Below, one piece after another: positions 545-32,643 of a stretch of 64,000 nucleotides of DNA (its first letter is position 1; every line of letters begins with the position of its first letter). Source of the stretch: a virus (taxonomy: Duplodnaviria > Caudoviricetes); IMG/VR virus record IMGVR_UViG_3300032007_000037, positions 32,001 through 96,000 of that record. One strand, 5' to 3'. The translations under genes and the position numbers were made by a program. The notes under the pieces were generated by a model. It saw only the letters and a program-made list of their open reading frames with translations, did not search any database and was not told where the DNA came from.

Positions 545-591
545 CTATTGTAGGTTATTTATGATTAGGTGATTATAATACTTTATTCATG

Positions 592-629
592 GGACTACTA
601 GTCAGTGATGATAGGTAGTCCTCTTTTTA
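592..629 (+). terminator. GTGA-tetraloop hairpin with internal loop and T-run (copy 1)
   Basis: GGACTAC-TA-GTCA-GTGA-TGAT-AG-GTAGTCC then TCTTTTT. Confidence 0.65.
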
Positions 630-654
630 TTATTAACATTTAATTTTTACTGTC

Positions 655-1290
655 ATGGAATTCAAAGTAGGAGATAAAGTAAGACTTAAACAAGATTTAA
701 TAGCAGGTCAAACATATGATGGCCTCACTTTACTGGCTCCAATGTACTTTTCAGATGTAAGAACAATATCTGCAATCTCAACAAATGGAAATTATTGGCT
801 TACAGAAGACCCCAGGGGTTTTTGTTATGCAGCAAAAATGCTTGAATACGCTCCTACTTACGAGTGTGGGGATATAGTTAAATTGTCAAGGCCTGAAGAA
901 TTACCATGTGATTACAGATATGGAATCAGTCCTATAAGAATAGATAATGGCGAAACTCTATTTGTAATTAAGGAAGTAAGAAAAAATGGACTTACAGCAG
1001 CCAGATCTGGAGAAGATGGATATGATTATAGATTATGCCGTATAAATGATACTGGAACAGTACTTGATATAGAGTTAAGAAGGATGTATTGGCTTTCATC
1101 AGGACTTAAATTATTTTCAAAACGCTTGCAATATGACTTCAGTATAGAACCTTGTCCTTCTCCTCTTACAAAGACTGATTTAGAAGCACCTTCTGAAAAG
1201 ACAAAAGGGGATTTAGGTTCTCGTGGGAATAAACTTGAATTATCTGTGCATAAGAAAGAGAGAAAACCCATCTTTAATTTTAAGAACTAA
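655..1290 (+). CDS. KOW/SH3-like paralogue 1 with conserved C-terminal basic-FNF tail
   Basis: N-terminal FKVGDKVRLK, internal repeat YECGDIVKL, C-terminal LELSVHKKERKPIFNFKN. Confidence 0.8.
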   Translation: MEFKVGDKVRLKQDLIAGQTYDGLTLLAPMYFSDVRTISAISTNGNYWLTEDPRGFCYAAKMLEYAPTYECGDIVKLSRPEELPCDYRYGISPIRIDNGETLFVIKEVRKNGLTAARSGEDGYDYRLCRINDTGTVLDIELRRMYWLSSGLKLFSKRLQYDFSIEPCPSPLTKTDLEAPSEKTKGDLGSRGNKLELSVHKKERKPIFNFKN

Positions 1291-1652
1291 TGGCTAGATA
1301 TAGAATAGGAGATAAGGTCTTAATTAAAAAAGACTTGGTCAATAGAAGATATTACGGAAATATCGTGTATTTAAACGCAATGTATATTAAAGGGCCTGTT
1401 ACCATAAGAGAAGTCCACTCTTCTAAGTACTATTTTATATATGAAAAAAAGTCATATCTGTATTCAGAAGATATGTTTGAACCTTATACTGCCCTTAATA
1501 TATTTCCTTTGCCCGAACAAATCAATAAAAGTATTCTAACTAAGATAAAAGAATATCTTTTCAGTTCCAAATCCAAGAAAACAATTCCTCTTATTCTTAA
1601 TGTAAATAAGCATAAACGTAAAATATTATTTAACTTTAGTGAATATGGGTAA
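1290..1652 (+). CDS. KOW/SH3-like paralogue 2
   Basis: YRIGDKVLIK ... LILNVNKHKRKILFNF; translationally coupled to neighbours. Confidence 0.8.
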   Translation: MARYRIGDKVLIKKDLVNRRYYGNIVYLNAMYIKGPVTIREVHSSKYYFIYEKKSYLYSEDMFEPYTALNIFPLPEQINKSILTKIKEYLFSSKSKKTIPLILNVNKHKRKILFNFSEYG

Positions 1653-2124
1653 ATATAAAATTGGGGATAAAGTACTTATTAGAAAAGGTTTAAAACCTGA
1701 TGAACATTATGGAGAAGATTATGTTCTATATATTAATAAAATGTACATAGAAGGTCCCGTTACTATAAAATCTTTATCCTGTTTTAACAATAGTTATTAC
1801 ATTCTAGAATGTCCTGAACATTGGCTTTATGCAGAAGAAATGCTCATGCCGTTTGAATCAGAGAGTCCTGTAGTAGAACTTAATAGAACCGATCTTTCTG
1901 TAAAAGCCGCTTCGCGTCTTGATAATGTTCTCACTGATGTGCTGGGAATAGATGATAGGGCCAGTGTCAGTCAAGTAAGCCATGTTCCTTATAAAAGTAT
2001 TGACAGAGAAGCTGAAAAGACAGAAGAAGAAGAGACATCCTATTTAGATTATTTGGAAAAGAATGCTCCCACTTTACAACTACATATAAAAAGTAAGCAG
2101 AAAGTGCAACTTAACTTTAAATAA
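1639..2124 (+). CDS. KOW/SH3-like paralogue 3 (probable start ATG 1645)
   Basis: YKIGDKVLIR ... LQLHIKSKQKVQLNFK. Confidence 0.8.
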   Translation: MNMGKYKIGDKVLIRKGLKPDEHYGEDYVLYINKMYIEGPVTIKSLSCFNNSYYILECPEHWLYAEEMLMPFESESPVVELNRTDLSVKAASRLDNVLTDVLGIDDRASVSQVSHVPYKSIDREAEKTEEEETSYLDYLEKNAPTLQLHIKSKQKVQLNFK

Positions 2125-2125
2125 T

Positions 2126-2530
2126 ATGGAATCGCAATTTAAAAAGGGGGATATTGTAACAATTCTTCCTATAGAAAACATTCCTCAAGAATATGTGGAA
2201 ATTTGCAAAACTCCAGCCAGAGAGAAGTATGCAAAACGTTTAGCAATTATAGATGATGTGCAATGGAATTGTTCTCCTGACAAGTTTATAGATGGCTATG
2301 GCTATCGTCTAATTGTTTTGATGGATAATCAAACTATAGAACTATGGCGCAGTGTACTATCTGTAGGATTAGTTAAATATGCTAATGCTTCTGATATCTC
2401 TATAGACTATAAGGCATACCCATTACAAGGCATTTCAGCATTAAATAGTATTAAACAAATAAACAATAAAGAAAAGCTTGTATTACAAGTAAATAAAAAC
2501 AAATCAAAACTTAAGTTTAATTTTAATTAA
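2126..2530 (+). CDS. KOW/SH3-like paralogue 4
   Basis: FKKGDIVTIL ... LVLQVNKNKSKLKFNFN. Confidence 0.8.
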   Translation: MESQFKKGDIVTILPIENIPQEYVEICKTPAREKYAKRLAIIDDVQWNCSPDKFIDGYGYRLIVLMDNQTIELWRSVLSVGLVKYANASDISIDYKAYPLQGISALNSIKQINNKEKLVLQVNKNKSKLKFNFN

Positions 2531-2538
2531 AAAACAGT

Positions 2539-2841
2539 ATGAAAAGAATTGTAGCAGCTTTCCAGAACAAGCTGGAAGCAATGAAGGCAGAGAGAAATGT
2601 TAAGCGTGTCTATCGTGCAATGGAGACAGCATCTGACAATGCAAAGGATAAGATTGAGGAGTTGGAAGGTCAGATGGCTGACTTAGTAGAGACTCTGCCC
2701 ACCTGTACAGATTTCAATGGCTTTATTCAGAAGTTGTCAGACCTGATTGAGGAGAAGGAGACCCAGCAGGTTGTTGTTGACCGTCTTGCTGCCATTGAGA
2801 AGTACCTCTCTGAGGATGTAAAGGTACAGGAGACCAAATAA
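2539..2841 (+). CDS. coiled-coil hypothetical protein
   Basis: 100-aa ORF, heptad pattern, A-rich start context. Confidence 0.75.
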   Translation: MKRIVAAFQNKLEAMKAERNVKRVYRAMETASDNAKDKIEELEGQMADLVETLPTCTDFNGFIQKLSDLIEEKETQQVVVDRLAAIEKYLSEDVKVQETK

Positions 2842-2885
2842 GCCCAAAATGGGATAATTAGTTTTTTCATAGTTTTTAAATTTCC

Positions 2886-2918
2886 CCCTATCCGTCTGTG
2901 AAGATAGATAGGGTTTTT
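2886..2918 (+). terminator. GTGA-tetraloop hairpin with 1x1 internal loop and T-run (copy 2)
   Basis: CCCTATC-C-GTCT-GTGA-AGAT-A-GATAGGG-TTTTT. Confidence 0.65.
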
Positions 2919-3055
2919 ATAAGTATTCAATTTACACATTTTTTCATATAAAGGCAGCACTTTTACATAGCGATGTAAGAATCTTTGAACTTTTTCTTTT
3001 AAAGTTATTCGTATTTTTAATTCTTTACAATTCTATTAAGTGCCGCCCCATATAA

Positions 3056-3135
3056 AGAGTAACTATTTATGTACAATAGGTTTATATAAACACCTCCTTT
3101 CCAAAATTTCACTATTAGTACATGAATGTTACTCT
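3056..3135 (+). ncRNA. long hairpin RNA displaying a 16S anti-SD-like sequence in its loop
   Basis: AGAGTAAC/GTTACTCT, ATTTATGTAC/GTACATGAAT and AATAG/CTATT stems; loop contains AACACCTCCTTTC (3089-3101). Confidence 0.55.
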
Positions 3136-3306
3136 GCCTAAAGAGAGTGAGGCTTGATACCGAGGATGCAGCTGAGGCAAGCATTATAAAGTAGAGATAT
3201 AACCGCTCGAAGCCACTCTGTTTTTCTTTAAATCAGGTGATGAAGTTATCATTTAAATAAGCTGAGAGAGGTTACTTAATAGTTTACTCAAAGCAGCCTG
3301 ATATTT

Positions 3307-3379
3307 GCTCCCTTAGCTCAGCGAATAGAGCATCTCACTTCTAATGAGAGGGTCATTGGTTTGAATCCAATAGGGAGTA
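3307..3379 (+). tRNA. tRNA-Arg(TCT)
   Basis: GCTCCCT/AGGGAGT; GCTC/GAGC D-stem; TCTCA-CTTCTAA-TGAGA; ATTGG-TTTGAAT-CCAAT. Confidence 0.9.
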
Positions 3380-3490
3380 CAAAAGAGACTGATTCTAAAG
3401 GTTTCTGAAAGGAGATAGTCACAATAACTAGGCCAGAGTGGGTAAACCAGATTGGACTGTATGAGTGACTATCTTCTTTCTTTTTATTGA

Positions 3491-3629
3491 GGAATTGATT
3501 GGTGGAACACTGAATCAAGAGAAGTACAGTGGAACAATGGCTCAGCAATCCTGTCTCTCTAAAAGTTCTCTTGAGCTGAAGGGACTGTATAGGTCTTATA
3601 GGAGAGTTCGATTCTCTCCACTTCCACCA
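3491..3629 (+). ncRNA. tRNA-like RNA ending in encoded CCA, with expanded anticodon domain
   Basis: GGAATTG/CACTTCC-A-CCA; T-arm GAGAG-TTCGATT-CTCTC; TCAAGAGAA(3515-3523)/TTCTCTTGA(3566-3574) closes a 42-nt loop; extended D-arm. Confidence 0.65.
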
Positions 3630-3661
3630 AATAGTTATTAACTTAAATTAATCATAGTATT

Positions 3662-4450
3662 ATGCAGAAATTAAACGTATTATTAGCATTAAGAGAGAAG
3701 CTAGCTAACCGTTATGCTAACATGGTTGGTGATTACACTGCTTTCTTCAAGAACAAACAAGGTGCTTTTCGTGGTGTTTTAAGAACCCATAGCCCTCTTG
3801 AGGGATATGCTGTAGACCCAACTAAGGTATCAAATGAGAGGGTCGTTACCACTGTCAATGAAAAGATGGATTGGTGGCTTAAAGAAGCTCTTGAGTATAT
3901 CAATACAGCACTTTCCATTGAAGCCAGTAATGGTGAAGGTGCAACTACCGTACCACTGGTATTTGAAGGAAAGACTTATGGCCCTTATCCTGCTACTGTA
4001 CTTCTTCGTCTTAGAGGTATTATAGAAAGTGATAAGTTGGCTCAAATGTTGGCTCAGATTCCTGTAAGAGAGGAAACTATCATATGGAAGCCTTCTACAG
4101 ATGAGGATTATCAGAAGAGGGGTAATATCTTTGAAAATGAGCGTCAGGAAGGTGAAACCAAGACTACTGAAACTCATGAAGAGATTCTCAAAGACCCAAA
4201 TCTTGATCCTAAGGCTCTTCCTTCCAACTATAGAGCACAAGTAACTCAAATTAAGAAGACTGTTAAGACTGGTGATTATACTGTTCAGTTCTTTACAGGT
4301 GAATGGACTCATCAGCAGCGAGCAAATCTTCTTAAGCGTAGAAGTGAATTACTTGATGCCATTAATGTTGCTCTACAGACTGTTAATGACAGAGATGCAG
4401 TTGAATGTAATGTTACAGAGCTTTTCAAGCATCTGATTTATGGTAAATAG
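3662..4450 (+). CDS. uncharacterised 262-aa helical protein, candidate partner of the downstream ncRNA
   Basis: Clean ORF embedded in the RNA island; long N- and C-terminal helices with a beta-rich insert; no catalytic motif recognised. Confidence 0.85.
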   Translation: MQKLNVLLALREKLANRYANMVGDYTAFFKNKQGAFRGVLRTHSPLEGYAVDPTKVSNERVVTTVNEKMDWWLKEALEYINTALSIEASNGEGATTVPLVFEGKTYGPYPATVLLRLRGIIESDKLAQMLAQIPVREETIIWKPSTDEDYQKRGNIFENERQEGETKTTETHEEILKDPNLDPKALPSNYRAQVTQIKKTVKTGDYTVQFFTGEWTHQQRANLLKRRSELLDAINVALQTVNDRDAVECNVTELFKHLIYGK

Positions 4451-4468
4451 AAATTTAAATTAAAATAA

Positions 4469-4757
4469 TTGACCTTAGCTTTAGCCTTATATTAAGCTTT
4501 ATCAAATCCTAGATAGAAAGCATTAATGTTGTGGTCAAAAGCATTATTCAGGTTGATTACAGTATATTACCTATCTGAAGACTACACAGTATCTTGCGAT
4601 ATAGGTTCGATTCCTGTCAGCCCCTCTAATATAACATAAATATGGGGCTGTGGTGTAATGGTTAGCATGTGAGGTTTTTCTAGCTTTAAGTTAAGTGGAT
4701 AGAATGTAATATACAAATGCTTTGGAGGTCAGTATGATGGATTTGTTCGCTGATCTC
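4469..4757 (+). ncRNA. large structured RNA with hexamer repeats and a circularly permuted tRNA-like domain (YrlA-like topology)
   Basis: T-arm 4601-4617, then CAGCCCC/GGGGCTG acceptor closed by a 19-nt linker, then D-arm TGGTGTAATGGTTAGCAT; nested helices CTATCT/GGATAG, GTATATTAC/GTAATATAC, AAGCATT/AATGCTT; TTGACC/GGTCAA loop holds TTAGCT-like hexamers. Confidence 0.75.
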
Positions 4758-4759
4758 TA

Positions 4760-4832
4760 AGCGGGGTAGCTCAATTGGTAGAGCAATAGTCGTGAAAACT
4801 GTGTGTTGTAGGTTCGATCCCTACCCCCGCTA
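4760..4832 (+). tRNA. tRNA with non-canonical anticodon loop (CGTGAAA, G33); identity undetermined
   Basis: AGCGGGG/CCCCGCT; TAGCTCAATTGGTAGAGC; ATAGT-CGTGAAA-ACTGT; GTAGG-TTCGATC-CCTAC; nominal anticodon TGA but no Ser long variable arm. Confidence 0.7.
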
Positions 4833-4839
4833 CTATTAA

Positions 4840-4941
4840 GGCAGAATGTGCGAATGGTATAGCAGTATTACTTTCACTCGATAGTAATATGGGATAAGAT
4901 TCTAGGAATTATCTATGGAGGTTCGAGTCCTTCTTCTGCCA
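4840..4941 (+). ncRNA. class-II tRNA-like RNA with 7-bp anticodon stem and 10-nt loop
   Basis: GGCAGAA/TTCTGCC-A; TATTACT-TTCACTCGAT-AGTAATA; long variable arm; GGAGG-TTCGAGT-CCTTC. Confidence 0.7.
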
Positions 4942-4981
4942 CAAAGTATGCTTGTCATACTGTTTAAAGGGTTTAGTTGCC

Positions 4982-5055
4982 GAATGCAGAGAATAAAGAC
5001 CTTACCGCTGAAAGTAGCGTAACTGGTTATAAATATTCTCTGCATTCTTTTTTTT
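4982..5055 (+). terminator. large-loop intrinsic terminator closing the RNA cluster
   Basis: GAATGCAGAGAATA/TATTCTCTGCATTC 14-bp stem followed by T8. Confidence 0.7.
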
Positions 5056-5074
5056 CACTTTAACGGCATCAAAA

Positions 5075-7369
5075 ATGATACAATATTCAGAATTAGTACA
5101 ATATATAAAAGACAATCATATCAATTGGAATACAGATTTATTTGATGTTCTAAAGGGTTTCTTTGAGAACAGAAATCAGATAACCCTCCCAAGTATACAT
5201 AACAATGTTCAAGCAAAACTAAATATAAAACCTCAGGATTTCTTTAAACAAGAGCCTTTTAAAGAACCAGATGACGGAGAATATAAAGACCAGGACTTAT
5301 ATAATTTATTTAACACATAAACCTTTTAAATTTAAACAGTATGTCAAAAGCAGAAGAACAAGCTATCAATGACATTAAGTCAGAGATTGAAGACAAAAAC
5401 AGTAAATGCTTTATCACTAAAAGCTTCATTAAGTTTAGACAATTCTTAAATCCAATAATGGATTGTCTGGTAGAGCAACAACTTGATGAACAGGAAAAAC
5501 TAAAACAGCAAAAATATGGAAGGAATCAGTAAATCTAGAAGACAGATTGTAGCTTCATGTTTTATATCCAAGTCTGGAAAACTTGAAGTAGTACGTTTTG
5601 ACAAATATGTACGCTATGAAGGTAACTACGGAAACACTCCTAGGAACACTTATTAAAGGTATTCTAGGCTTATGTATAGCTATGGCTATTGCTTATTGTA
5701 TAGTTGCCATCTCTGCTGGAGATGGTATGTATGGACTTATAGAATTGATGTGGAATGTGTGAATTTAAAGAAGGTGATATTCTCGTTCCTATTGATAAGA
5801 CAAGAGGTTTTGACGAGATTAAGATTCTAAAAAGAGTAAATGACAAGTTCCACTGTAGAATCTTAAATGGAATAACCATAATATCAGTGCATATAGTGGA
5901 AATGATGTATAAGAGGAAGGGTGAATAGCACCTTTCCTCTTTTTTTCTAATTTAAATATAACTAAAATGAAAGAGCCATACACATGGTTAATAGCTATAC
6001 TATTAGCAGTGTTTATAATCTCAGTATTAACCTTTAAATCGGATGACTAATGACAACTATAGCTTTAATTATAATTATATTATTATTCTATATTGTAGGT
6101 GTTGTTTTAGCCTTAGCTGCTATAACAAATGCTAATCTGGAAGAATGTGATGAGCCTCCTATACCTAGAGATTTAGCATTGTTATCTTGGATATTCTTTG
6201 CAGTTATTCTTTTTGGAGCATTTACATGTTTCTTAGGAGAATATTTCGGAAGATATATAGATGACTTTTATTATTATCTACAAGATAAATTTAGGGAAAA
6301 CTCATAAAAACTTATAAGATATGATACTAATATATATTATTTGTTTAGTCTTATATATCGTAGCCTGTTATTGCCTTATACAAGGTAATTACTATGAAAA
6401 TAAACGTAAATGGAGCGGTTATGATAAAGCTGCTTATATGGCCAAACAACAATCAGAGTTTCTATATGGAGTAGGTATGAGTATACTGGTGGGATTAGTA
6501 ATATTTGGAGTATGGGCAATATCAATGATTGAATGATATGGATAAGATTACAAAGAAACTTTCTGATATTATATGGGAAGCAATAGGTATTCCCAAGACA
6601 AGAGAAGAAGTAGACACTTATGCTCAAAATGCAATTAAAGGCCTACTCAATGTAATAAATAAAGATACTCCTAAATGGAGACTTTGTACAGAAGATACTA
6701 TTATATTCAACTATGGTATTGTTCCAGTACAAAGGGGTAATAAGCTTTTGTGGACACACGAAGTTAAAAAAGGAGATCTCTACTTAACTCGCAAAGATTT
6801 ACTTAAACTAGGAAAAGAAGATGGATAATCAAATAGAGAAGTTTGACCCTTCTAAACTGATGGAAGGAGTTAAAGACCGAATAAAGGCAACATTTGTCAG
6901 TCTTATTCCAGATGATGCCTGGGAACAGATGTTGGAAAAAGAACTCTATGTCTTTACTACAGGTAGAATTGTCTCCCATCATGACATAGATTATGAGCAT
7001 AAGGACGAAAATGGGCATTACCTTTATACAGACTGGGAAGAAAGGATTCCTTATTCTGATACTCCGACTTATGATAACTGGGGTCATGTTAAGGAACCTG
7101 CTACAATTTCTCCTCTAAGAAGAATGATAAGAGATATTCTTTATGAAAGATTTCAACAAGACCTTAAAGAATTTCTCAACGAGGGTGATTATAAGCAAAC
7201 TTTTGACGAGCATGGTAAACCTGAAATATCCAAAGCTATTCAGGACATTCTTGTAAATAATGCAGATACCATGTTCCAAAGTTTCTTAGGTTCTGTTTTA
7301 CAGCAAGCATTTTGGAACTTTAAAGGCCAAATACAAGCATCTATTCAAACAGGTAATTTTCAATATTAA
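5075..7369 (+). CDS. run of small hypothetical genes (5075-5320, 5341-5532, 6050-6307 and 6321-6536 membrane proteins, 6529-6828, 6821-7369)
   Basis: Co-oriented, closely packed ORFs with A-rich starts; two carry two hydrophobic segments each. Confidence 0.65.
5911..5946 (+). terminator. intrinsic terminator
   Basis: AGAGGAAGGGTG-AATAG-CACCTTTCCTCT then T-run. Confidence 0.75.
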
Positions 7370-7574
7370 TATGAGTTGGTATGATGATTGGAAGGATGAT
7401 CAAGAAGCATTACATGATAATACTGAACTTGACCATCTTGCAAGTAACTTGATTGAAGTTGTTTATAAGAAAAAAGATAAACCTTCAAAAATAAGACGTA
7501 AGATATTCAAAAGGAAAGACAACTGTTAATTACAATATTACAGAAAAAAAACAAAGGATAACAAATAATATGGG

Positions 7575-18152: not shown

Positions 18153-18163
18153 AATATAAACGA

Positions 18164-20157: not shown

Positions 20158-20463
20158 TCATAAGGTTTCATTAAACTTTTCTACAACTTCTTCTTGAACC
20201 TCAGGAAGAATATGTTCCTCTTGTTCATCATCTACAGGAAAAGCCTTGAGAATTTCTATTTCCTCTTCAATTTCATTAATCCTATCTCTTTTAGCTTGAT
20301 TTTCTGTATAAAGCCCAAGAGGGTCATAAGGAAGAGGTTTATTAGCTCTTTCTGCTTCACCGTTCTTTACATTCTTGTAATCATTACTCTTTAGTTCCGA
20401 TTCAAGATTATTCATCTCTATGTAGAGCAAGTTAAGCTGCTCTTGCTGTTCTTCTCTTGTCAT
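20158..20463 (-). CDS. tail-fibre-associated small coiled-coil protein
   Basis: LKSNDYK..K..E....PYD......Q..RDRINEIE pattern; overlaps RT 3' end. Confidence 0.55.
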   Translation of the reverse strand: MTREEQQEQLNLLYIEMNNLESELKSNDYKNVKNGEAERANKPLPYDPLGLYTENQAKRDRINEIEEEIEILKAFPVDDEQEEHILPEVQEEVVEKFNETL

Positions 20464-21673
20464 ATTTTTTCAATTTTAAATTATACTTTCTGTTCAATCT
20501 ATCATTAACTGAAAAACCTTTTCTATAACCAAGGCATAATCTTCTTCTATTAAAATATACAAATTTCCACCAGTCTTTTGCTATTAAGTTCTTTAATTTA
20601 ATTAGTCTTTTATAATCTGTCCTATTTTTAAGTAAACCTGAATATGAATTAAAAGACGCTACAAGTGCATCTATGTCTCTATATTTTTGTGTATTTAATG
20701 TTTGGATCTTCTTTATAGCTCTATTATAAGTAACATTATTTAGATGTATTCTATACGGTTTTATATGACTGCCCAGAAATTCTAAACCATATTGATAAGG
20801 TTGGTCATAGAACTTCTTTTCATTAAGTTTAACATTTCTGTCTGCTAATCGAGTTCTAAGTTCAGGTAGTAAACTAAGAGCATACTGATGTTGTTCTTCA
20901 GGTACTATCATAACTATATCATCTACAAAACAAACAAGTTTGATTTTACAATCATCAGTAAGCCATTCAATAATATCATTAATGTATAAACACATGGATG
21001 TCTGCCATATAAGTCTGCCTATAGCAGCCCCAATACCTTCAGGTTTATCAAGAATAGATTTTTCAGGTTTAATGTGTTCTTTCCATAATTGTTTAGGGGT
21101 TCTTAATTCACAATTACCCGCTGGATTACAATGAAGGGCAATCATAGTAAGCCATTTAAAATACGGTTTTTCTGAATCTGGAAAATATATAATCTTATAA
21201 TGATCTATTACTTTATTTATAACAGTTTCAGCATAATTCCACAAAGCATTAGGAAAATAACCGCTAAAATCTATTTTAATACATCTTGTAGGTTTTGTAT
21301 AACCCCAGGATACTTCATTTATATGTTCTATAAGTTGATTTATAGCAGCCATTAAGCCTTTACCAACTCTATTATTAAAAGTATAAGGAGAGAGTAGTTT
21401 GTCTGCTGCTGGAATAAGTCTATCACATATTTCATGGTCAATCTTTCTCCCTTCAAATTCAGTAGCCATGATTTCTCTCCAAGTAGGAATAGAAACAAGG
21501 AAGGCATAATTATGTTTTATCCTTAAAGTCCTATTTAATCTAGCATACATTCCTCTAATTGTAAGGGCTATGATATTATTCTCATAAGCAAGACTATCGC
21601 CACCCCTACGTTTATTCTTCTGAGTGCTAAATACAAGTTCCATTTGTTTAATAAAGAACTCTTCTTCAGACAT
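20432..21673 (-). CDS. brt: DGR reverse transcriptase (start at MSEEEFF, ATG 21673)
   Basis: WREIMAT..GRKIDH; NNRVGKG; KIDFSGYF; GAAIGRLIWQ; CFVDDIV; LNEKK; LEFLG; lies directly downstream of TR. Confidence 0.93.
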   Translation of the reverse strand: MSEEEFFIKQMELVFSTQKNKRRGGDSLAYENNIIALTIRGMYARLNRTLRIKHNYAFLVSIPTWREIMATEFEGRKIDHEICDRLIPAADKLLSPYTFNNRVGKGLMAAINQLIEHINEVSWGYTKPTRCIKIDFSGYFPNALWNYAETVINKVIDHYKIIYFPDSEKPYFKWLTMIALHCNPAGNCELRTPKQLWKEHIKPEKSILDKPEGIGAAIGRLIWQTSMCLYINDIIEWLTDDCKIKLVCFVDDIVMIVPEEQHQYALSLLPELRTRLADRNVKLNEKKFYDQPYQYGLEFLGSHIKPYRIHLNNVTYNRAIKKIQTLNTQKYRDIDALVASFNSYSGLLKNRTDYKRLIKLKNLIAKDWWKFVYFNRRRLCLGYRKGFSVNDRLNRKYNLKLKKYDKRRTARAA

Positions 21674-21694
21674 ATTATATTCTTCAAACAAATT

Positions 21695-21791
21695 CGCCAC
21701 TGCAACACACTGATTACTATTGTTCACGTTGTTGTTGTTCAAATTACCATTGTTACCATTGAAATTCCAAGCATTATTCACGTCATACCTC
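21695..21791 (-). repeat. DGR template repeat (TR), 97 bp
   Basis: Ungapped match to VR 22419-22515 with 16 mismatches, all at TR adenines; 14 AAY codons in the VR frame. Confidence 0.97.
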
Positions 21792-22359: not shown

Positions 22360-22395
22360 GCTCCCTAGTCGCCCTTCGGGACGACATAGGGAAGC
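22360..22395 (-). promoter_or_regulatory. DGR homing hairpin downstream of IMH
   Basis: - strand GCTTCCCTA-TGTCG-T-CCC-GAA-GGG-CGAC-TAGGGAGC; GC-rich bulged stem with GAA loop 8 nt after the target stop. Confidence 0.75.
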
Positions 22396-22403
22396 ATTAA
22401 GAA

Positions 22404-23699: not shown

Positions 23700-23720
23700 A
23701 ATAGTATATCTTTAATCCGT

Positions 23721-25745: not shown

Positions 25746-25828
25746 GTCTTAATGAATTTAAATATTATTATTAAGATAAAGGGAAGAGGTATTATCCCCT
25801 TCCCTCTGTGGTTTCTGTATTTATAAGA

Positions 25829-27157
25829 TTATTCCCACTCTAATGCTGCAAGCATATCAGGAGTCATTAGACCATTAGCTGAAGAATTAACTACAGCAGT
25901 TGAAGCAGCACCAATATTGGTTCTAGCATTACCCTGTTGTGCAGTAGATAAACCTTGACTAGCAGAAGTACTTACTACAGCAGTACCTGGGGTAATATTA
26001 GCATCGAACTGAACACCGTGACCATCTTTCACAGTAACTTTCATATCCCCACCAATGAAGTATATGTCAGCACCACTAGACTCAGTAAAATAAATCTTCT
26101 TATTGGTAGTATCAGCTACGGGAGACACAGTGTTAGCAAAATTAGCATCAGCAGGTACAGACTTACCAAGAGTTTTTCCACTATCAGACAAGTTACCGCT
26201 AGCATCAAGTGTAGCTACATTACCAGCAGCAGCAGGAACTGCCTTATTAGCTTTACCACTAATATCCTGATGAGCTACAAGAACTTCCTGAGAAGTACCA
26301 CTCTTAAGAGTAATATTCTTCTTAGTAGAATCTCCGCTAACATCTGCAATAGATATTTCAGCCCTATTAACTTTATCAGCCTGTAAGGTCTGAATAGCAG
26401 ATGCATTAGCAGCACCCTTAGAACCTTCATATGCAGTACCTTGTGTCTCACCAAGAGCTAGAGAAGCAGAAATTTCTGCCATGTCAGTACCCCCCCAACG
26501 ATATGTCTTAGAGTTAGAAAGATTTACATAAATCTTACCACCTACAGGGTCAGTACCTGGTCCCCAAGTATTAGTAGCAGTAGCATAATGTAGTTTCTTT
26601 GTAGATGTATTATAATAGTAATCACCTGCAACACAACTTGCAGGAGCTGTATCAGTGAAATTCAGACACTCAATTACATCATCTACATAAGAAGGTAACT
26701 GAGAAGCAGGAACCTTACCATCACTACCTAGGCTCGCAACACCATTGTTAGCACCCTTTTCTGTAGCAGAAATAAAATCACTAGCCTTCTTACCACTATC
26801 AGTTAAGTTACCATTACTATCAAGACCTGCAAAGTTTCCATTGGTAGCACCGCTTACCTTATCAGCCTTACCACTGATGTCTTGATGAGAAGTAATAACG
26901 TCTTTAACAGCTACATCAACACCATCAACATTAATAGTACCAGAAGTCGTACCTATCTTAACTCGTTTAACACCAGTATAGTCTTTACCATTGACAAGAA
27001 TTCTAGTATTAATATTTACTGTATCTTTCTGAGCATCAGTCATCTCAGAAGTATCAGTTCCATTCTCAAGATAGAATACCTTATCTACTTTTTCAGCAGC
27101 ACTAAGTGCATCATACTGAGCTTTACTTTTACTCTTTACAAATTTTACAAAACTCAT
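25829..27157 (-). CDS. tail fibre protein
   Basis: HQDISGKA repeats, GNLTDSGK, GKVPASQLPSYVDDV, GNARTNIGA. Confidence 0.8.
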   Translation of the reverse strand: MSFVKFVKSKSKAQYDALSAAEKVDKVFYLENGTDTSEMTDAQKDTVNINTRILVNGKDYTGVKRVKIGTTSGTINVDGVDVAVKDVITSHQDISGKADKVSGATNGNFAGLDSNGNLTDSGKKASDFISATEKGANNGVASLGSDGKVPASQLPSYVDDVIECLNFTDTAPASCVAGDYYYNTSTKKLHYATATNTWGPGTDPVGGKIYVNLSNSKTYRWGGTDMAEISASLALGETQGTAYEGSKGAANASAIQTLQADKVNRAEISIADVSGDSTKKNITLKSGTSQEVLVAHQDISGKANKAVPAAAGNVATLDASGNLSDSGKTLGKSVPADANFANTVSPVADTTNKKIYFTESSGADIYFIGGDMKVTVKDGHGVQFDANITPGTAVVSTSASQGLSTAQQGNARTNIGAASTAVVNSSANGLMTPDMLAALEWE

Positions 27158-27203
27158 AACTTTTCAAATTTAAATTGTTTATAAAATGTTAATTCTTATA
27201 AAG

Positions 27204-27222
27204 AGGCAGGGAGTTTCCCTGC
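27204..27222 (-). terminator. hairpin/terminator between fibre genes
   Basis: GGCAGGGA-GTT-TCCCTGCC. Confidence 0.5.
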
Positions 27223-27237
27223 CCCATTGATTATATA

Positions 27238-28599
27238 TTATCCCCAAGTAAGCTGGGTAGCAATAGCCTCAAGTGCATCTTCTACACCTGCATCCTGTAC
27301 AATCTGGTTAGCAGTAACTAAATTAACACCATTTGTCTTAAGTACTCCTTCTTCATATGTAACAGTATCACCACCTGTTCCAGGAGTAAGTGATCCATTT
27401 CTCCAAGCTTCTATAAGAGATGAAAGAGCAGATATGTTTTGAGATGTTTCTGTACTTCCAACAACTGCTTGTTGAGCCCTTGAAACAGTAAAGTACTTAT
27501 TAAGAGTACCTTCAGGCACATTGTCAGTTGTACCAGGAGACGCAGAAATCTCTACAAGATTTGCATCAGATTCATTACTGCATCTCCAAGTCTTATTGGA
27601 AAAGTCTCCTGCACCTACAGTAACATATATTACACTCTTTTTAGCATGAGCGGAGGCAATAGCCCAAGTACCGCTAGGGGAACAAGAAACTAGTTGAGTT
27701 ACATTATTGAAAGAAGTACCTGAATTAAGAGTTACAGCATTGTAATATTTACCTACAACAGGTACAATATCATAGCTTGAAGGAATATCAGTGCCTTCAT
27801 ATACTGACTTAGGAGTATCACCTTTTAAATAGCGTTCTGTACTTCCTACAGTTTTTACAAGTACTACATCAAGCTCTTCTACTTCCTCTACATAACTGGG
27901 TAACTGACTTGTTGGAACCTTACCATCAATAAGATCAGCCTTTGTATTAGTCTGAATAGGTTGATATACATCATACTTGTAACCATACTCTCCTGTATTA
28001 CTATTACGAACAAATACAGTGCCTGGCAGATAAACACCAGTCGGTATAACAGAGTTTAGATCAGTTTCAAAACCTTCGTATGTTACATATGTATGACCAC
28101 TAGAAGCAGTAGATGCTCTTGCAATTAAAGTAGCTTCGTCTGTAACATGTTCTGCTATGCCTTTAACCGCAGTAACAGATATTTTACCATTCTCGTCACC
28201 TATGATAGCGTCTGTTAACTGAATTGCATTAAAGTGTCTTGTAGATGTTCCAGTTTCACTTGCAGGCTTGTTGGTACGCTTAAAGAAAGTCAAAGGAGGA
28301 TATGTACCACCCTTTACAGTTGGTGTATTACTCTGAGCAGTAAAGCCCTTAAGGGTAACATATATAGTTCCTTCAGCCGCATTAAGACCGCAAGCAATCA
28401 GTTCTTCGCGTGACTCTACAGTACCTACACCATAGTTTACACCTCCTACCATGATAGTGTGTTTATGCTCACCATCAGTAGTAAAGAATATAGTACCAGG
28501 TTCAGTAGACTTAGCAGCCTCAGCAGCAGCAAAAGTAGTCTGCTTGAACTTAACATTCATACCTGCCAAAAGTTGGCTTAAATTTTGTCCATTTGCCAT
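27238..28599 (-). CDS. tail fibre protein
   Basis: VKF...GTIFFTTD...GGVNYG module; ADLIDGKVPTSQLPSYV; TTDNVPEGTLNKYFT. Confidence 0.8.
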   Translation of the reverse strand: MANGQNLSQLLAGMNVKFKQTTFAAAEAAKSTEPGTIFFTTDGEHKHTIMVGGVNYGVGTVESREELIACGLNAAEGTIYVTLKGFTAQSNTPTVKGGTYPPLTFFKRTNKPASETGTSTRHFNAIQLTDAIIGDENGKISVTAVKGIAEHVTDEATLIARASTASSGHTYVTYEGFETDLNSVIPTGVYLPGTVFVRNSNTGEYGYKYDVYQPIQTNTKADLIDGKVPTSQLPSYVEEVEELDVVLVKTVGSTERYLKGDTPKSVYEGTDIPSSYDIVPVVGKYYNAVTLNSGTSFNNVTQLVSCSPSGTWAIASAHAKKSVIYVTVGAGDFSNKTWRCSNESDANLVEISASPGTTDNVPEGTLNKYFTVSRAQQAVVGSTETSQNISALSSLIEAWRNGSLTPGTGGDTVTYEEGVLKTNGVNLVTANQIVQDAGVEDALEAIATQLTWG

Positions 28600-28623
28600 A
28601 ATTATAAAAGTTTTAATAGATTA

Positions 28624-28878
28624 TTATTCGTTCCATTTTAAAGTTGAATTATTCTTTGGTACAAGATTTTCTAATGTTGTACCACCTTGCCACCAGTATT
28701 CTACCACATTGCTGCCTTCTACAATCCCTACTGTCAAACCAACACAAATCAATTCATCTTGTGCAAGTATTGATTGGGCTGCATTCTTTGACAAGTAAGG
28801 GCCATATCTGACATCTAAATTTGGTAAATCTGATCTTGTGGTTAAAAAGCCACCATTATTTGCTGTTATATTTGCCAT
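28624..28878 (-). CDS. small structural/fibre module protein
   Basis: LDVRYGPY...GLTVGI...EYWW.GG. Confidence 0.6.
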   Translation of the reverse strand: MANITANNGGFLTTRSDLPNLDVRYGPYLSKNAAQSILAQDELICVGLTVGIVEGSNVVEYWWQGGTTLENLVPKNNSTLKWNE

Positions 28879-28889
28879 ATTTAAATATT

Positions 28890-30950
28890 TTAAAATGTTA
28901 CTGCAATTGAATCATTGGGATCATACCCTGTAACGAGTCTATTACCAAATACTTTATAGGTCATACCATTAACCTGAATGTCATCATGGGGACAAGTGCT
29001 ATCATTTACAACGTCCAATACTTGTTGAATGCCTCCAGATGTAAAGGTTATCTGTGCAGGTGCTTTGCCTTCTTGATATAATAGATAGAAGATATTGTTA
29101 TCACCAAACGTTCTTGTATAAGTAGGATTGCTTGAAATACTATAATGTGTGGCACCTTCTATCAAGTCTGCATTAGACAATCCTCTGAACTGAGATTTAG
29201 TGCCATTTGTCCAACCTACATAATAATCAGATACTCCACTTTCAGCAAAGATTGCATAGTATGTAAGGTTCCTTCTACCTATTCTACTATTTAATGTTAT
29301 ACCATTCTTAGCATTTGGGTCAGTATTCCAACCTACGAAGTTATACCCTTTTTTGATAGGTTTGCTGGGTATTTCAATAGGGGTGCTGGTAGGCCCAGTA
29401 ACTGAATAAACTTCTACATCATCAACAATAAATTTTACTGTGTACTCTATAGCAGGTTGTGGAACAGCTTGCCAAACAGCTACCAAGAGATAATCTTCTT
29501 GTACATTTTCGATAATATCATTTGGATATAAATATCTACCACTACCTAATGTACCAATAGACCATTTTACAAATTCATTTTTTTCTCTAGTAAAACTGCA
29601 AACAGGAACTACAAAGTTCTGACCTGCTTCAACTGATACAGAAGTCATTGTCCCATCACCTCCGTTACTATCAAAGGTTATTGTATAAGAATGCTTTGCA
29701 ATAGCCCTATATGTAAGGGTTAGAGGCTCTGATACTACAGGATGTCCTTCTACATAAGAAGAAATAACTGTAATTGTTACATCTTTATCCTCAAGTATAT
29801 TAGGTGCAGTAACAGTTACCCGATTAAGTGAACCACTAGAAGTAGAAGGATTTACACTACCGTCTGTTACCCTGATAAGACAACTCGCATACCTAGATAC
29901 ATCAGCAGTTGTTCCATCGGTATAATGGGCAATTACATGAGGTTTTGTAAGTGTAGCTTCCTCCCCACCATAGATTTCACTTTGAATGGAGCCTCCTTCA
30001 AGAGTAATTGAAGTAATATCTTTATTCATAATCCAATCAGGTGTTGCAATTACATTTTCAGTAACCAGATACCTACTTGCTTGAAGATACTTAACATTAT
30101 TTATAATCCAGTTGGGCTCAAGTCTATATCCATCTTTTGAGCCAGCGTATATAGGAAGATTTACATACTCCCCTTGCATACAGCTTACTGAAGTAACATA
30201 TCCTGAACCACCATTTAAGTCAAAGGAAACAGTACAAACAGGTTTCCAGACGGCATATAATACAATGTTTGTATCAATATTCTCTATGGCCTCCCCTTCA
30301 GCATATGTCTCACTGGATGTAGGAGAATTTACCGCCCACTTAAAGAAACCATAACTATCATACCTAAAACTACAAGAAGGTACAATATACTCAGAACCAG
30401 TAATCACAACAGTTGGCATATAGCCAGTACCTCCGTTAGAATTGAAGGTTATAGTATATTTAGGATCGAAAGGCGAAGGATCATCTTTATGGAACTCTTC
30501 AAGTCTTTCAATTCTACTTTCAATACTTTCCATTTCAGCTTCTATTGAGGAAATATGTTCATTGGCTGTTGTAATTAAAGCACGAACTGTCTCAATACTA
30601 CTTGTTAAAGTATTAATCTTTGAAGTAAGTATTGTGTTGTTTGTGTTTATTGTGGCCATTAAGTTAGAAACTTTCTTGGCTACAGCTCTTTCAGAAGGAT
30701 ACTTTATATCATCTGCGTATATATCACCAGTTTCTGTTTGATTGTACTCTCTGATGTTTGGTGTTTTATTTACCTCATATTCAAAACCCAATTCTCCAAC
30801 GTCAATACCCTTTCCACTGATAATAGCATTCTTAACTTTAGAATCAAGTTTATCCCAAGTAACAGAACTGTCCTTTAATATAAAGGCCATCTTCTGTTTT
30901 GGTTTGCCCTTTAAAGGAGATTCTCCAAGATATTTTTCCTTTGCTGCCAT
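28890..30950 (-). CDS. virion protein with coiled coil, InlB B-repeat (Listeria-Bacteroides repeat) and Ig-like domains
   Basis: Repeated YTITF(N/D)SNGG.G.M...W...LYAVW; P.KKGYNFVGW...YYAIF. Confidence 0.8.
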   Translation of the reverse strand: MAAKEKYLGESPLKGKPKQKMAFILKDSSVTWDKLDSKVKNAIISGKGIDVGELGFEYEVNKTPNIREYNQTETGDIYADDIKYPSERAVAKKVSNLMATINTNNTILTSKINTLTSSIETVRALITTANEHISSIEAEMESIESRIERLEEFHKDDPSPFDPKYTITFNSNGGTGYMPTVVITGSEYIVPSCSFRYDSYGFFKWAVNSPTSSETYAEGEAIENIDTNIVLYAVWKPVCTVSFDLNGGSGYVTSVSCMQGEYVNLPIYAGSKDGYRLEPNWIINNVKYLQASRYLVTENVIATPDWIMNKDITSITLEGGSIQSEIYGGEEATLTKPHVIAHYTDGTTADVSRYASCLIRVTDGSVNPSTSSGSLNRVTVTAPNILEDKDVTITVISSYVEGHPVVSEPLTLTYRAIAKHSYTITFDSNGGDGTMTSVSVEAGQNFVVPVCSFTREKNEFVKWSIGTLGSGRYLYPNDIIENVQEDYLLVAVWQAVPQPAIEYTVKFIVDDVEVYSVTGPTSTPIEIPSKPIKKGYNFVGWNTDPNAKNGITLNSRIGRRNLTYYAIFAESGVSDYYVGWTNGTKSQFRGLSNADLIEGATHYSISSNPTYTRTFGDNNIFYLLYQEGKAPAQITFTSGGIQQVLDVVNDSTCPHDDIQVNGMTYKVFGNRLVTGYDPNDSIAVTF

Positions 30951-30951
30951 A

Positions 30952-31341
30952 CTAATCCTCCTCTACAATAATTTGAACATCAGACTGAGGATTACTGGCA
31001 ATTTCATCAATATCGTGTATGACCTTGACTACTTCAGTATCTTCAATCTTTTTAACTCTGTGAGCTAATTCCGTAATCTCACCACAATGTAATTTTCCCA
31101 TCTTTAAATAATCAGGATAAGACATTAAACATTCCGTACCATAGAAACAGTCTAAAACCTGTTCTATCAAGCGATAATCATCCTTAGTAAGAATGCCTCT
31201 ATAGTCATTCATTACAAAGTCTCTATAAAAGCTGTATACCAAAAGTTTGTTTGGTATCGCACCCTTTAGATATCCTGTTACTTCCAGTATATCGTAATAG
31301 GACTTAAGCATATTATAAAGGATATTATCCATGACAACCAC
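30952..31341 (-). CDS. crAss-type structural hypothetical protein
   Basis: YYDILEVTGY...CLMSYP; coupled to neighbours. Confidence 0.65.
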   Translation of the reverse strand: MVVMDNILYNMLKSYYDILEVTGYLKGAIPNKLLVYSFYRDFVMNDYRGILTKDDYRLIEQVLDCFYGTECLMSYPDYLKMGKLHCGEITELAHRVKKIEDTEVVKVIHDIDEIASNPQSDVQIIVEED

Positions 31342-31933
31342 AACGTTTTACATTAAACTCTTTCTTGTTTGCAAAGAGCATATTATAGAATCTGATTGCA
31401 GAGTTCCAATGCTCTGTTATAATAGATGCTTTGAAAGCATTCCACAATAAAATGAAATCAACAAAGTCTCTTGAAGGCTCTACACATCCCTTAGCCAGTT
31501 CCTTGGTATAGCCCATCACCTTTTGGTATAAAAGAGTGTCATCAAAAACAGCAGAGATTGTAGTAAGACTATCAAGTTCACAAGGAATACAACTATAACA
31601 AGGGTCTAATTCACCATCGCGTTTACAAACAAATAGGACAAAGAATAAATCCTTTGAGAAATTATTTGGGGCGGTAGGAGTAAACCCTTGGTCATTTGGG
31701 TTTAAAGCCAAATGTGCCTCAGTCTGATTGCCTTCAAAGACTTTTTTATATATATAATCCTCTTCAAATAGCTCAGAAGCAATTTCTGAGATATTATCAG
31801 CAGTCTTTATGATGATTTTATCAAGGTAGAAATTCTTGAATGCATCTGCCTTGTTTACATGTACATCTATAAGAAGCTGATTTCCATTATCTGAAACTCT
31901 AAGTTGATCAACAATTATCATGATATTTTGCAA
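31325..31933 (-). CDS. crAss-type structural hypothetical protein ending CGCHG
   Basis: First gene of - strand operon; Cys-rich C-terminus. Confidence 0.65.
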   Translation of the reverse strand: MQNIMIIVDQLRVSDNGNQLLIDVHVNKADAFKNFYLDKIIIKTADNISEIASELFEEDYIYKKVFEGNQTEAHLALNPNDQGFTPTAPNNFSKDLFFVLFVCKRDGELDPCYSCIPCELDSLTTISAVFDDTLLYQKVMGYTKELAKGCVEPSRDFVDFILLWNAFKASIITEHWNSAIRFYNMLFANKKEFNVKRCGCHG

Positions 31934-31943
31934 TTATCTTGCG

Positions 31944-31951
31944 CAAATTTA
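31944..31951 (-). promoter_or_regulatory. Bacteroidetes-type -7 promoter of the structural operon
   Basis: TAAATTTG on - strand. Confidence 0.6.
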
Positions 31952-32231
31952 AATATAAGATGTATGTATTATCGGGAGATAAACAGATGGCTTAAAGGTA
32001 CTTAAAAAGTGACTTAACCTTTAAGGAAAAATACAAGTAGTTAAGGTAATAGTATCCTTTTATTTTATGATAGTCTCATAGAGAAAAACTGGTTAATTAC
32101 ACCTCCCACGTTCATACAATTTACTTGAGATAGTAGGGGAAGAGGGGAGGGAGTGGGTATTAATATTATCAAGTTTCTTAAGATGAAATTAATCAAGATT
32201 TAAGTTTGGCAAATTCTAATGTGTATTAGAT

Positions 32232-32239
32232 TACATTTG
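32232..32239 (+). promoter_or_regulatory. Bacteroidetes-type -7 promoter (divergent)
   Basis: TACATTTG 16 nt before ATG 32256, TTTG upstream at ~32205. Confidence 0.65.
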
Positions 32240-32255
32240 CACAAATTTAACTATC

Positions 32256-32576
32256 ATGTGGATAAAAAATGTATTCAGTTATTTAGGCAAAGCAGTTCAA
32301 AGCAACACAGGAATAAGCTCCTTATCATTAATAGTAATAGCAATTGGTGTAATGTCAGTTGTTACTTTAGTGGTAATATGTGCCTGTATGCTTGTTGAGG
32401 TAATATTTAATCATACAATCTCTTCTTCATTGGAAGGATATGCGGCTATTATTACTTCATTGTCTACTCTTGTAGCTGCTGTAATGGTTCCTAAGGCAGT
32501 AAATAACTATGGTGAAAGTAAGTATTTCAAAGATTATAATGAAAGTAATGTAGAAGAAACCGAAAATCTTCTATAA
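32256..32576 (+). CDS. holin-like two-TM membrane protein
   Basis: Two TM segments, acidic C-terminal tail. Confidence 0.55.
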   Translation: MWIKNVFSYLGKAVQSNTGISSLSLIVIAIGVMSVVTLVVICACMLVEVIFNHTISSSLEGYAAIITSLSTLVAAVMVPKAVNNYGESKYFKDYNESNVEETENLL

Positions 32577-32609
32577 TTATTTTTTGATTGGTTAATTAGT
32601 TATGGTTTC

Positions 32610-32643
32610 AGTCTACTTTGTTGTGAAACACGGTAGACTTTTT
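32610..32643 (+). terminator. GTGA-tetraloop hairpin with 1x1 internal loop and T-run (copy 3)
   Basis: AGTCTACT-T-TGTT-GTGA-AACA-C-GGTAGACT-TTTT. Confidence 0.65.

Follow-up and report, generated by a model that had tools for sequence, protein, structure and literature searches.

The window analysed here, a stretch of 64,000 nucleotides (64 kb), is part of the complete 131-kb genome of a crAss-like phage that carries four copies of one hairpin design, three of them (H1, H2 and H3) within the window and one (H4) outside it. The earlier note had described the first three, and each was found where it had been placed. A tRNA-Leu (aag) gene at 466..545 (+), predicted by ARAGORN and matching the Rfam tRNA model at 50.7 bits, is followed by a 45-nt T-rich trailer (tract 1, 546..590, +), for which an AU-rich hairpin of its own is predicted, and the unit is closed by H1 (591..622, +). 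H1 has a 9-bp outer stem, an A x A mismatch, an inner stem of GUCA/UGAU and a GUGA loop, with CUUUUU after the stem (U-run at 624-628, +). H2 (2886..2913, +) closes the operon at 655-2841, whose final gene is a 100-aa ORF (2539..2841, +) with a weak, sub-threshold match to DUF7553. The intervening 44-nt 3' UTR (tract 2, 2842..2885, +) holds TTTTTTCATA at 2862-2871, and H2 itself has a 7-bp outer stem, a C x A mismatch, an inner stem of GUCU/AGAU, a GUGA loop and UUUUU at 2914-2918 (+). A 106-aa ORF (32256..32576, +), the opening gene of a rightward module, is followed by a T/G-rich 3' UTR of 33 nt (tract 3, 32577..32609, +) and closed by H3 (32610..32639, +), in which a 7-8-bp outer stem, a U x C mismatch, an inner stem of UGUU/AACA and a GUGA loop precede UUUUU from 32640 (+). 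H4 lies on the minus strand at genome positions 17612-17587 and has a U.G pair where the mismatch would be expected.

The internal loops had previously been given as 1x1 or 2x2; the former applies to all three copies in the window and the latter to none. The stem sequences also differ less than was claimed, as H1, H2 and H4 all read GUCN-GUGA-NGAU with G.U at the base of the inner stem. H3 is the most divergent copy, with an inner stem that opens U-A/G-C and a C as the 3' mismatch base; H1 and H2 carry G.U then U-A at the start of the inner stem together with a 3' mismatch A. Folded alone with RNAfold, H1-H4 give -11.5 to -16.8 kcal/mol, and tract and hairpin folded together reach z-scores of about -2.9 to -3.4 relative to shuffles. 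Five T residues lie immediately 3' of the stem in each copy. Two properties of intrinsic terminators are therefore present at H1-H4, namely a stable hairpin followed by a U-run and a position on the same strand past the end of a transcription unit, the spacers from tRNA-Leu or stop codon being 45, 44, 33 and 50 nt, respectively. A U-run accompanies every copy, and each stands 33-50 nt beyond the end of a gene or tRNA on its own strand, which makes a role as intrinsic terminators the most likely one. Sixteen other terminators of this phage have different loops and no T-rich tract; the last 30 nt upstream contain 14-21 T at H1-H4 and about 11 at these others, in agreement with the T-richness reported before.

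Occurrence of the design by chance was assessed with an exact-design scan that allowed all 256 tetraloops. It returned eight hairpins in the phage genome, four of them with GTGA, and none in any of 200 shuffled genomes. A covariance-model scan, which the earlier note had proposed, was carried out with a model (R2) trained on 68 hairpins from other phages and bacteria only, and it retrieved exactly H1-H4, with scores of 33.5 bits for H1 (E 5.6e-7), 39 bits for H2 (E 1.2e-8), 26.5 bits for H3 (E 7.5e-5) and 36.8 bits for H4, the next best hit in the window reaching 14.6 bits. As R2 was built solely from hairpins of other genomes, the assignment of H1-H4 to the family is not circular. Rfam 15 gave no match at gathering score at the phage hairpins or at the copies in relatives and hosts, and in the window at 380-3320 no credible match up to E = 10, the two overlaps with PyrR and snoJ26 (E 5.8-9.4) being at chance level. 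Known RNA families at the hairpins, including HDV-like (theta), hatchet and other ribozymes, were excluded on the basis of this result. A possible resemblance to helix 12 of 16S rRNA and to the acceptor/T-arm minihelix of tRNA was considered, but the register is another and no relation is claimed. Searches of the literature yielded nothing relevant on the core sequence, on Bacteroides tetraloop terminators or on hatchet-plus-terminator contexts. The GUGA-tipped hairpins form a large and apparently uncatalogued family.

To describe this family, sets were seeded with two exact core words of 14-15 nt, CNGTCTGTGAAGATNG and GGTTCGTGAGAATAG, in viral contigs. Each word matched more than 100 viral contig stretches, which are lower bounds, and among the matches listed, long outer stems of differing sequence accompany 55 of 115 for CNGTCTGTGAAGATNG and 108 of 123 for GGTTCGTGAGAATAG. 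Across 77 aligned hairpins 97.4% of cells are paired, against 43% with the partner shifted, and compensatory changes on both sides are seen in 11 of the 12 pairs. The consensus comprises a freely covarying outer stem of 6-11 bp, a single mismatch with usually A as the 3' base, a 4-bp inner stem that begins with G.U then U-A, and a GYGA tetraloop, mostly GUGA; about nine nucleotides of the tip are conserved. The loop is constrained rather than freely mutable, although its invariance is in part a selection effect, fixed core words having been used to seed the sets. Members found without seeding correct for this in part only: their first pair is G.U in 12 of 14, against 24% among hairpins with other loops, and the 3' A is present in 12 of 14, against 35%.

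Of the hairpin-forming copies in prokaryote genomes, nearly every one to which a name could be given comes from Bacteroidota, and those in hosts stand at the ends of capsule operons and tRNAs. Adjoining tRNAs lie on the same strand as the hairpin in about 40 cases and on the opposite strand in none. The G.U pairs, which exist on one strand only, and these same-strand tRNAs indicate that the family element is an RNA of the hairpin strand. An element acting as DNA, or a mobile repeat, could be ruled out, as outer stems vary within one genome, orientation tracks transcription and the G.U pairs are one-strand-only. Directly 3' of the hairpin there is usually a feature by which an RNA 3' end is generated, be it a U-run, a hatchet ribozyme or the 5' end of a tRNA, where RNase P cuts. 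In set 1 (n=66) these numbered 39 U-runs, 11 tRNA starts within 15 nt and five hatchet ribozymes, and in set 2 (n=61) 28 U-runs, 14 tRNA starts 2-13 nt away and two hatchet ribozymes. The hatchet, as delimited by Rfam, starts at the base immediately past the hairpin in L024 and 0-2 nt off in L295, and hairpins located between tRNAs are 19-61 nt past one tRNA and 2-13 nt ahead of the next. By crude detection, about a third of the family has none of the three devices. As the U-run is absent in about 30-50% of members, termination cannot be the sole conserved role of the family. Its anatomy, covariation, strand specificity, contexts and taxonomic range are established.

Our favoured reading, which we consider rather likely, is that H1-H4 belong to a widespread Bacteroidota and phage hairpin family that marks RNA 3' ends, and that transcription most likely stops at them. 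The hairpin would then stay on the upstream RNA as its 3' cap, and the T-rich tract would be a 3' UTR or tRNA trailer. The conserved tip is probably more than a folding nucleus and may be read by a putative host factor, for example a protein that binds 3' ends or modulates termination. Orthologous sites are informative for H3, as the ortholog of the 106-aa ORF in L399 (66% identical) is also followed by a two-part GUGAC-loop hairpin of different sequence and a U-run, and the tract at that site is not conserved. For H1 and H2, relatives of the flanking small proteins were not found among viral or metagenome contigs. The two phages that share the DUF7873 gene have the hairpin at other locations.

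The earlier note had proposed that tract and hairpin together form a guide-plus-handle small RNA. Its structural half holds, in that a variable U-rich, C-poor tract joined to a constant hairpin recurs throughout the family. The functional half, which in a broadened form we regard as quite unlikely, would have termination, RNase P, RNase Z or a ribozyme release an RNA of 60-90 nt whose 5' part pairs with A-rich starts of mRNAs from host or phage, with the hairpin as a handle for protein. Units between tRNAs would indeed be excised at both sides, and the Bacteroides small RNAs FopS and GibS have the same layout and act on start regions (PMC11697453). The reverse complements of the tracts also read as had been reported, including ATGAAAAAA at 2862-2871 and 2939-2948. 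Genes on the minus strand behind these reads were rejected, as the frames span 47, 35 and about 6 codons and none in the family exceeds 64 aa. The two ATG-opened frames here, of 47 and about 6 codons, are not genes; the first continues, in antisense, across the end of the preceding gene, and the second opens in the TTTTTTCATA copy downstream of H2 (2939..2948, +). When the four tracts were compared with 439 start regions (159 from the phage and 280 from Bacteroides/Prevotella) against dinucleotide-shuffle controls, the predicted complementarity did not materialise, as for every tract the best duplex energies were no better than those of shuffles (z -1.6 to +1.4). This outcome corresponds to a refuting condition named in the earlier note. 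Mean pairing energy was lower than in shuffles (z -2.1 to -2.7) only for tracts 2 and 4, which have long U-runs and share TTTTTTCATA 14-15 nt ahead of the hairpin, and this reflects generic U:A pairing. TTTCAT occurs in only 13 of 135 family tracts, about twice a rough expectation, the putative seed in tract 1 is predicted to be self-paired rather than single-stranded, and L399 has another tract at the orthologous site. No TGTGAA-containing sequence was found in the supplementary files of the FopS paper, and no Rfam small RNA family is found at the locus. The tracts are most simply read as 3' UTRs or trailers with a terminator at their end, since each starts right after a stop codon or tRNA; about half of the set 1 copies are likewise within 200 nt past an ORF.

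Terminators often carry GNRA or UUCG loops, and the shared tip could accordingly be just a fast-folding GNRA nucleus, copied or convergent, in ordinary intrinsic terminators that are not specifically recognised. The anatomy and position of H1-H4 are textbook for this, and a metagenome-wide survey placed most Bacteroidota 3' stem-loops near typical Rho-independent terminators (PMC13613805). We nevertheless think this unlikely, because selection for stability alone would not be expected to give the U-A loop-closing pair, the conserved G.U, the mismatch and the 3' A, and many family members without a U-run stand ahead of tRNAs or ribozymes. The different loops and missing T-rich tracts of the other phage terminators argue in the same direction, as does the density of the hairpin, about 30 per Mb in the phage, whereas five genomes of Bacteroidales have at least some 0.4-1.4 per Mb (150 candidates scored per genome). 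Boxes resembling TAnnTTTG, the Bacteroidota -7 element, are about fourfold enriched 2-14 nt upstream of family hairpins (34 with at most one mismatch versus about 8 expected), an enrichment that would instead suit a hairpin located where a transcript begins. A promoter within the T-rich tract would then start transcription at the hairpin base, and the tRNA or gene further downstream would have the hairpin as its 5' cap or leader; where a U-run follows, the product would be an RNA of about 35 nt that might act as a decoy or as a site of factor recruitment. In one subfamily the box is perfect (TAACTTTG) and stands 6 nt ahead of the hairpin, with a tRNA next, downstream tRNAs are tightly spaced (2-13 nt), and H2, H3 and H4 each have a 7/8 box 5-8 nt upstream. 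Box positions are diffuse, however, T-rich composition by itself inflates the matches, and this phage has no perfect box at that spacing. Nor does such a promoter account for the copies that precede hatchet ribozymes or directly follow ORFs, or for initiation straight into a terminator, and we judge this explanation very unlikely.

If H1-H4 mark RNA 3' ends, as we favour, a broader and more tentative possibility is that a very large class of RNA ends in phages and Bacteroidota has the hairpin as its conserved 3' handle, that a putative Bacteroidota RNA-binding or termination factor reads it, and that phages concentrate it to deliver transcripts or small U-rich spacer RNAs to that factor. The RNA ends concerned would be those of mRNA 3' UTRs, tRNA-array spacers and ribozyme-released fragments. 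Bacteroides is the dominant gut genus, which gives weight to the question of how its own and its phages' RNAs are ended, protected and handed over to proteins. A fixed motif of nine nucleotides, with well over 100 distinct copies in gut-phage contigs and others at the ends of host capsule operons and tRNAs, offers a bait for such a factor, and its placement ahead of three distinct devices that make 3' ends renders the 3'-end role testable. The hairpin is also a practical marker of transcript ends in crAss-like phage genomes. A caution is that 3' UTRs rich in U will invariably appear antisense to A-rich start regions in Bacteroidota.

Like intrinsic terminators in general, H1-H4 consist of a G+C-containing hairpin then a U-run, a few tens of nucleotides past a same-strand gene or tRNA. 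The GUGA family differs from them in having about nine fixed tip nucleotides and a mismatch, and in a third to half of its members the hairpin borders on a tRNA 5' end or a hatchet and no U-run is present. The 3'ETS-leuZ of E. coli is a tRNA 3' external transcribed spacer RNA. H1 and tract 1 similarly form a trailer from tRNA-Leu to a terminator that would be freed by tRNA processing, but tract 1 is predicted to be self-paired. GibS and FopS have a single-stranded 5' seed and a terminator hairpin (PMC11697453). The FopS seed (R1') is conserved and FopS is served by sigma-ABfr promoters of its own, whereas the tracts here are not conserved and start at stop codons or tRNA ends; pairing to start regions at the level of shuffles, self-pairing in tract 1 and the differing tract in L399 further separate them from seeds of that type. 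Identity with FopS or GibS was rejected, as no sequence link was found. Among 3'-end modules, Hfq binds a U-rich stretch, terminator hairpin and U tail, ProQ/FinO proteins bind terminator hairpins, and the histone stem-loop is bound by SLBP. The last is likewise left at the 3' end through cleavage. According to a published report (PMC13370968), Bacteroides has neither Hfq nor CsrA. The GUGA hairpin may be likened to the Hfq, ProQ and SLBP modules, by analogy and not by membership, in being a structured hairpin at an RNA 3' end, with a U-rich stretch before it, that would serve as a protein handle. The boxB hairpin of lambda is a tetraloop hairpin read by the transcription factor N. The LoaP-dfn UNCG hairpin is also read by a transcription factor (PMC12691694). 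These two share with the GUGA hairpin its small size, a fixed tetraloop, few conserved stem features and a connection with termination versus read-through; they differ in favouring read-through from a place in the 5' leader, ahead of a terminator, while the GUGA hairpin is itself terminator-type or located at 3' ends.

Three hairpins of one common design, each capped by a GUGA loop, had been described in the window by the earlier note, and both the design and the coordinates were confirmed. All lie on the plus strand: H1 (591-622) has an outer stem of 9 bp, an A x A mismatch and the inner stem GUCA/UGAU; H2 (2886-2913) has 7 bp, a C x A mismatch and GUCU/AGAU; and H3 (32610-32639) has 7-8 bp, a U x C mismatch and UGUU/AACA. 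Five T follow immediately 3' of each. Scanning the complete genome by folding energy revealed a fourth copy, H4, on the minus strand outside the window (genome 17612-17587), the core of which, GUCU-GUGA-AGAU, is identical to that of H2. The stems were held to differ in sequence within the one design; the design stands, but the stems are more alike than was claimed, a G.U pair at the inner-stem base being common to H1, H2 and H4. A strict search for the design with all 256 tetraloops gave eight hairpins in the genome, four of which carry GTGA, whereas 200 shuffled genomes yielded not one; the hairpins are therefore real and far from chance.

H1 lies 45 nt beyond tRNA-Leu (466-545), H2 starts 44 nt past the stop codon with which a five-gene operon (655-2841) ends, H3 starts 33 nt past the stop of ORF 32256-32576, the first gene of a rightward module, and H4 lies 50 nt after a 200-aa minus-strand gene. 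All four copies are carried on the transcribed strand and, judged from sequence, their anatomy and position are those of intrinsic terminators. A further site checked, genome 21909-21930, holds a weak hairpin. About 700 nt before the window start, at genome 31278-31304 (+), a two-part variant with a GUGAU loop and without a U-run lies 6-8 nt 5' of a tRNA 5' end, which is the hairpin-before-tRNA layout of other phages occurring in the present one.

The virus record is complete (131,166 bp, direct terminal repeats), and the window spans its bases 32001-96000. The virus is marked as a crAss-like phage by a Crassvirus tail hub protein A domain, a G+C content of ~35% and several tRNAs, and no close relative was found in the annotated phage collection. 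The window also holds, within the block of structural genes, a 449-aa ORF (20432-21781, minus strand) that encodes a reverse transcriptase domain (RVT_1) and may belong to a diversity-generating retroelement. Elsewhere there is an HNH/NUMOD ORF of homing-endonuclease type (I-HmuI-like; 10844-11890, plus strand). Directly 3' of tRNA-Ser (4760-4833) is a 102-nt Rfam tRNA match (4840-4941, plus strand, 38 bits) that ARAGORN missed and that is probably a tRNA carrying an insertion.

The family of two-part hairpins to which these copies belong appears to be undescribed, and of the results it is the more interesting one. No Rfam 15 family matches at the copies in the phage, its relatives or hosts, and no description was found in the literature searched. 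A first covariance model, made from the phage copies, picked up hairpins in two related phages; several of these lack a U-run and lie 3-8 nt before tRNA genes. The density by this model was ~30 per Mb in the present phage, whereas five Bacteroidales genomes had roughly 0.4-1.4 per Mb, host values that are lower bounds, with 150 candidates scored per genome. The exact core word CNGTCTGTGAAGATNG has at least 115 matches in viral contigs, and among the 115 listed 55 have an outer stem of at least 7 bp (chance expectation below 1), with varying stem sequences; a second core, GGTTCGTGAGAATAG, has at least 123, with an outer stem of at least 6 bp in 108 of the 123 listed. In prokaryote contigs, with one genome per species, an outer stem of at least 7 bp forms at 21 of 120 matches; the stem-forming matches with named records are nearly all from Bacteroides, Prevotella and other Bacteroidales, whereas those without a stem are scattered across all phyla.

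Across 77 aligned hairpins 97.4% of cells pair, compared with 66% after shuffling and ~43% with the partner slid, and both sides change in 11 of 12 pairs. Since fixed words had served as seeds for the sets, a tabulation was also made of every two-part hairpin within 2.0 Mb of the retrieved viral loci. Among the non-seeded ones GTGA occurs 14 times, GCGA seven times and every other loop at most three times; in 12/14 GTGA members the first inner pair is G.U, and 12/14 carry an A on the 3' side of the mismatch, against 24% and 35% in hairpins with other loops. The family consensus is outer stem, N, GUNN, GYGA, NNAU, A, outer stem. An independent model, for which 68 hairpins from other phages and from Bacteroidota genomes were the sole input, was run on the window with filters off and gave H2 39 bits, H1 33.5 and H3 26.5, the next best match reaching 14.6; in the genome search H4 scored 36.8 bits. 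Family membership of H1-H4 is thus non-circular.

At the one orthologous site found (L399) the upstream protein, ortholog of ORF 32256-32576, is 66% identical and is followed by a two-part GUGAC-loop hairpin and a U-run, with entirely different stems and an unrelated spacer. There, 3' of the ortholog, two GUGA(N)-loop two-part hairpins follow one another ~100 nt apart (~3315-3345 and 3415-3445), both with a U-run. Host copies lie at the ends of capsule-polysaccharide operons or after tRNAs. In Bacteroides genomes G003 and G004 a structured, conserved, multi-copy non-coding element without an Rfam match occupies the 3' ends of capsule-polysaccharide loci (L248, L241, L250, L261, L269, L247, L256, L265), where it follows genes for a WecG-type glycosyltransferase or a Wzc-like kinase. 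An alignment by eye covered about 90 nt of it, with a gap of ~280 nt in one locus, and its last hairpin is a nearly identical family hairpin with the outer stem AUAUCAAC/GUUGAUAU.

The 66 non-redundant copies of set 1 include 39 with a U-run, 11 with a same-strand tRNA start within 15 nt and five with a hatchet ribozyme 3'; no opposite-strand tRNA was seen beside them. The 61 copies of set 2 include 28 with a U-run, 14 with a tRNA start 2-13 nt away, two with a hatchet ribozyme and 12 with a tRNA end 19-61 nt upstream. By Rfam (RF02678), the first position of the hatchet model at L024 (8438-8555, minus strand) falls on the base immediately 3' of the last hairpin pair, and the hatchet at L295 (1994-2119, minus strand) starts 0-2 nt from the stem end; hatchet-like sequence also stands 3' of the hairpin at L060, L065, L093 and L108. 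Hatchet cleavage would give the upstream RNA a 3' end formed by the family hairpin. What these contexts most simply have in common is an RNA 3' end just past the hairpin, because U-run, RNase P site and hatchet cleavage site would each create one there.

RAGATH-7 and RAGATH-9 RNAs lie near the hatchet-associated hairpins, and several DUF2693-FD RNAs (RF02926) share non-coding islands with family hairpins and tRNAs (L019, L023, L100). Phage arrays of repeated hairpin-then-tRNA units were seen at L327 (2010-2425), L340, L323 and L319; in the Rfam match many of their tRNAs span 98-134 nt, which suggests that they carry insertions. In a 194.5-kb relative (G002; L002, 1658-10638) a dense array of ~18 tRNAs with four family hairpins in between includes a CUA-anticodon tRNA (amber suppressor type) and a tmRNA.

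The earlier note had proposed that a variable U-rich tract followed by a constant hairpin forms a guide and handle against host start codons. As anatomy this is correct: the last 30 nt of the tracts before H1-H4 (tracts 1-4) contain 14-21 T, against a mean near 11 in 16 other terminators of the phage, so that their T-richness is real and specific, and family-wide the 20 nt 5' of the hairpin are T-rich and C-poor, C being as low as 0-7% per position in set 1. As a guide the tract is not supported. When each was paired by RNAduplex with 159 phage and 280 Bacteroides/Prevotella start regions (-25 to +15), best duplex energies stayed within the dinucleotide-shuffle range for every tract (z -1.6 to +1.4); the mean energy fell below shuffles only for tracts 2 and 4 (z -2.1 to -2.7), an effect of U-runs pairing with A-rich starts in this phylum, and tract 1 is predicted to form a closed AU hairpin itself. 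Of 135 distinct family tracts 13 contain TTTCAT, ~2x a rough expectation, and every minus-strand frame that it opens is at most 64 aa. H2 and H4 have TTTTTTCATA in common 14-15 nt 5' of the hairpin, and this may be a duplication of a ~70-nt module. The word TTTTT(T)CATA(G) recurs 5' or just 3' of family hairpins in the present phage, a relative and a Prevotellaceae genome (window 2862-2871 and 2939-2948; L003 ~1628-1637, minus strand; L399 ~3365-3375; L249, ~16 nt 5' of the hairpin), and its copies open no real gene on the other strand. A reading of the hairpin as a leader or mini-RNA is kept alive by boxes like the Bacteroidota -7 promoter element, enriched ~4x at 2-14 nt 5' of the hairpin, although their positions are diffuse and the sequence there is T-rich.

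On balance we favour, with some reserve, the view that H1-H4 are intrinsic terminators and belong to a special class, conserved and Bacteroidota-wide, with a tip that something probably recognises. Among known systems the nearest are ordinary terminators, FopS/GibS-type sRNAs, and protein-bound 3' hairpins or tetraloop hairpins. The seed features of FopS/GibS-type sRNAs, tested on the tracts, were absent from them. H1-H4 have the features of ordinary intrinsic terminators, transcript release being predicted, and the family may be likened, by analogy, to protein-bound 3' hairpins and tetraloop hairpins.
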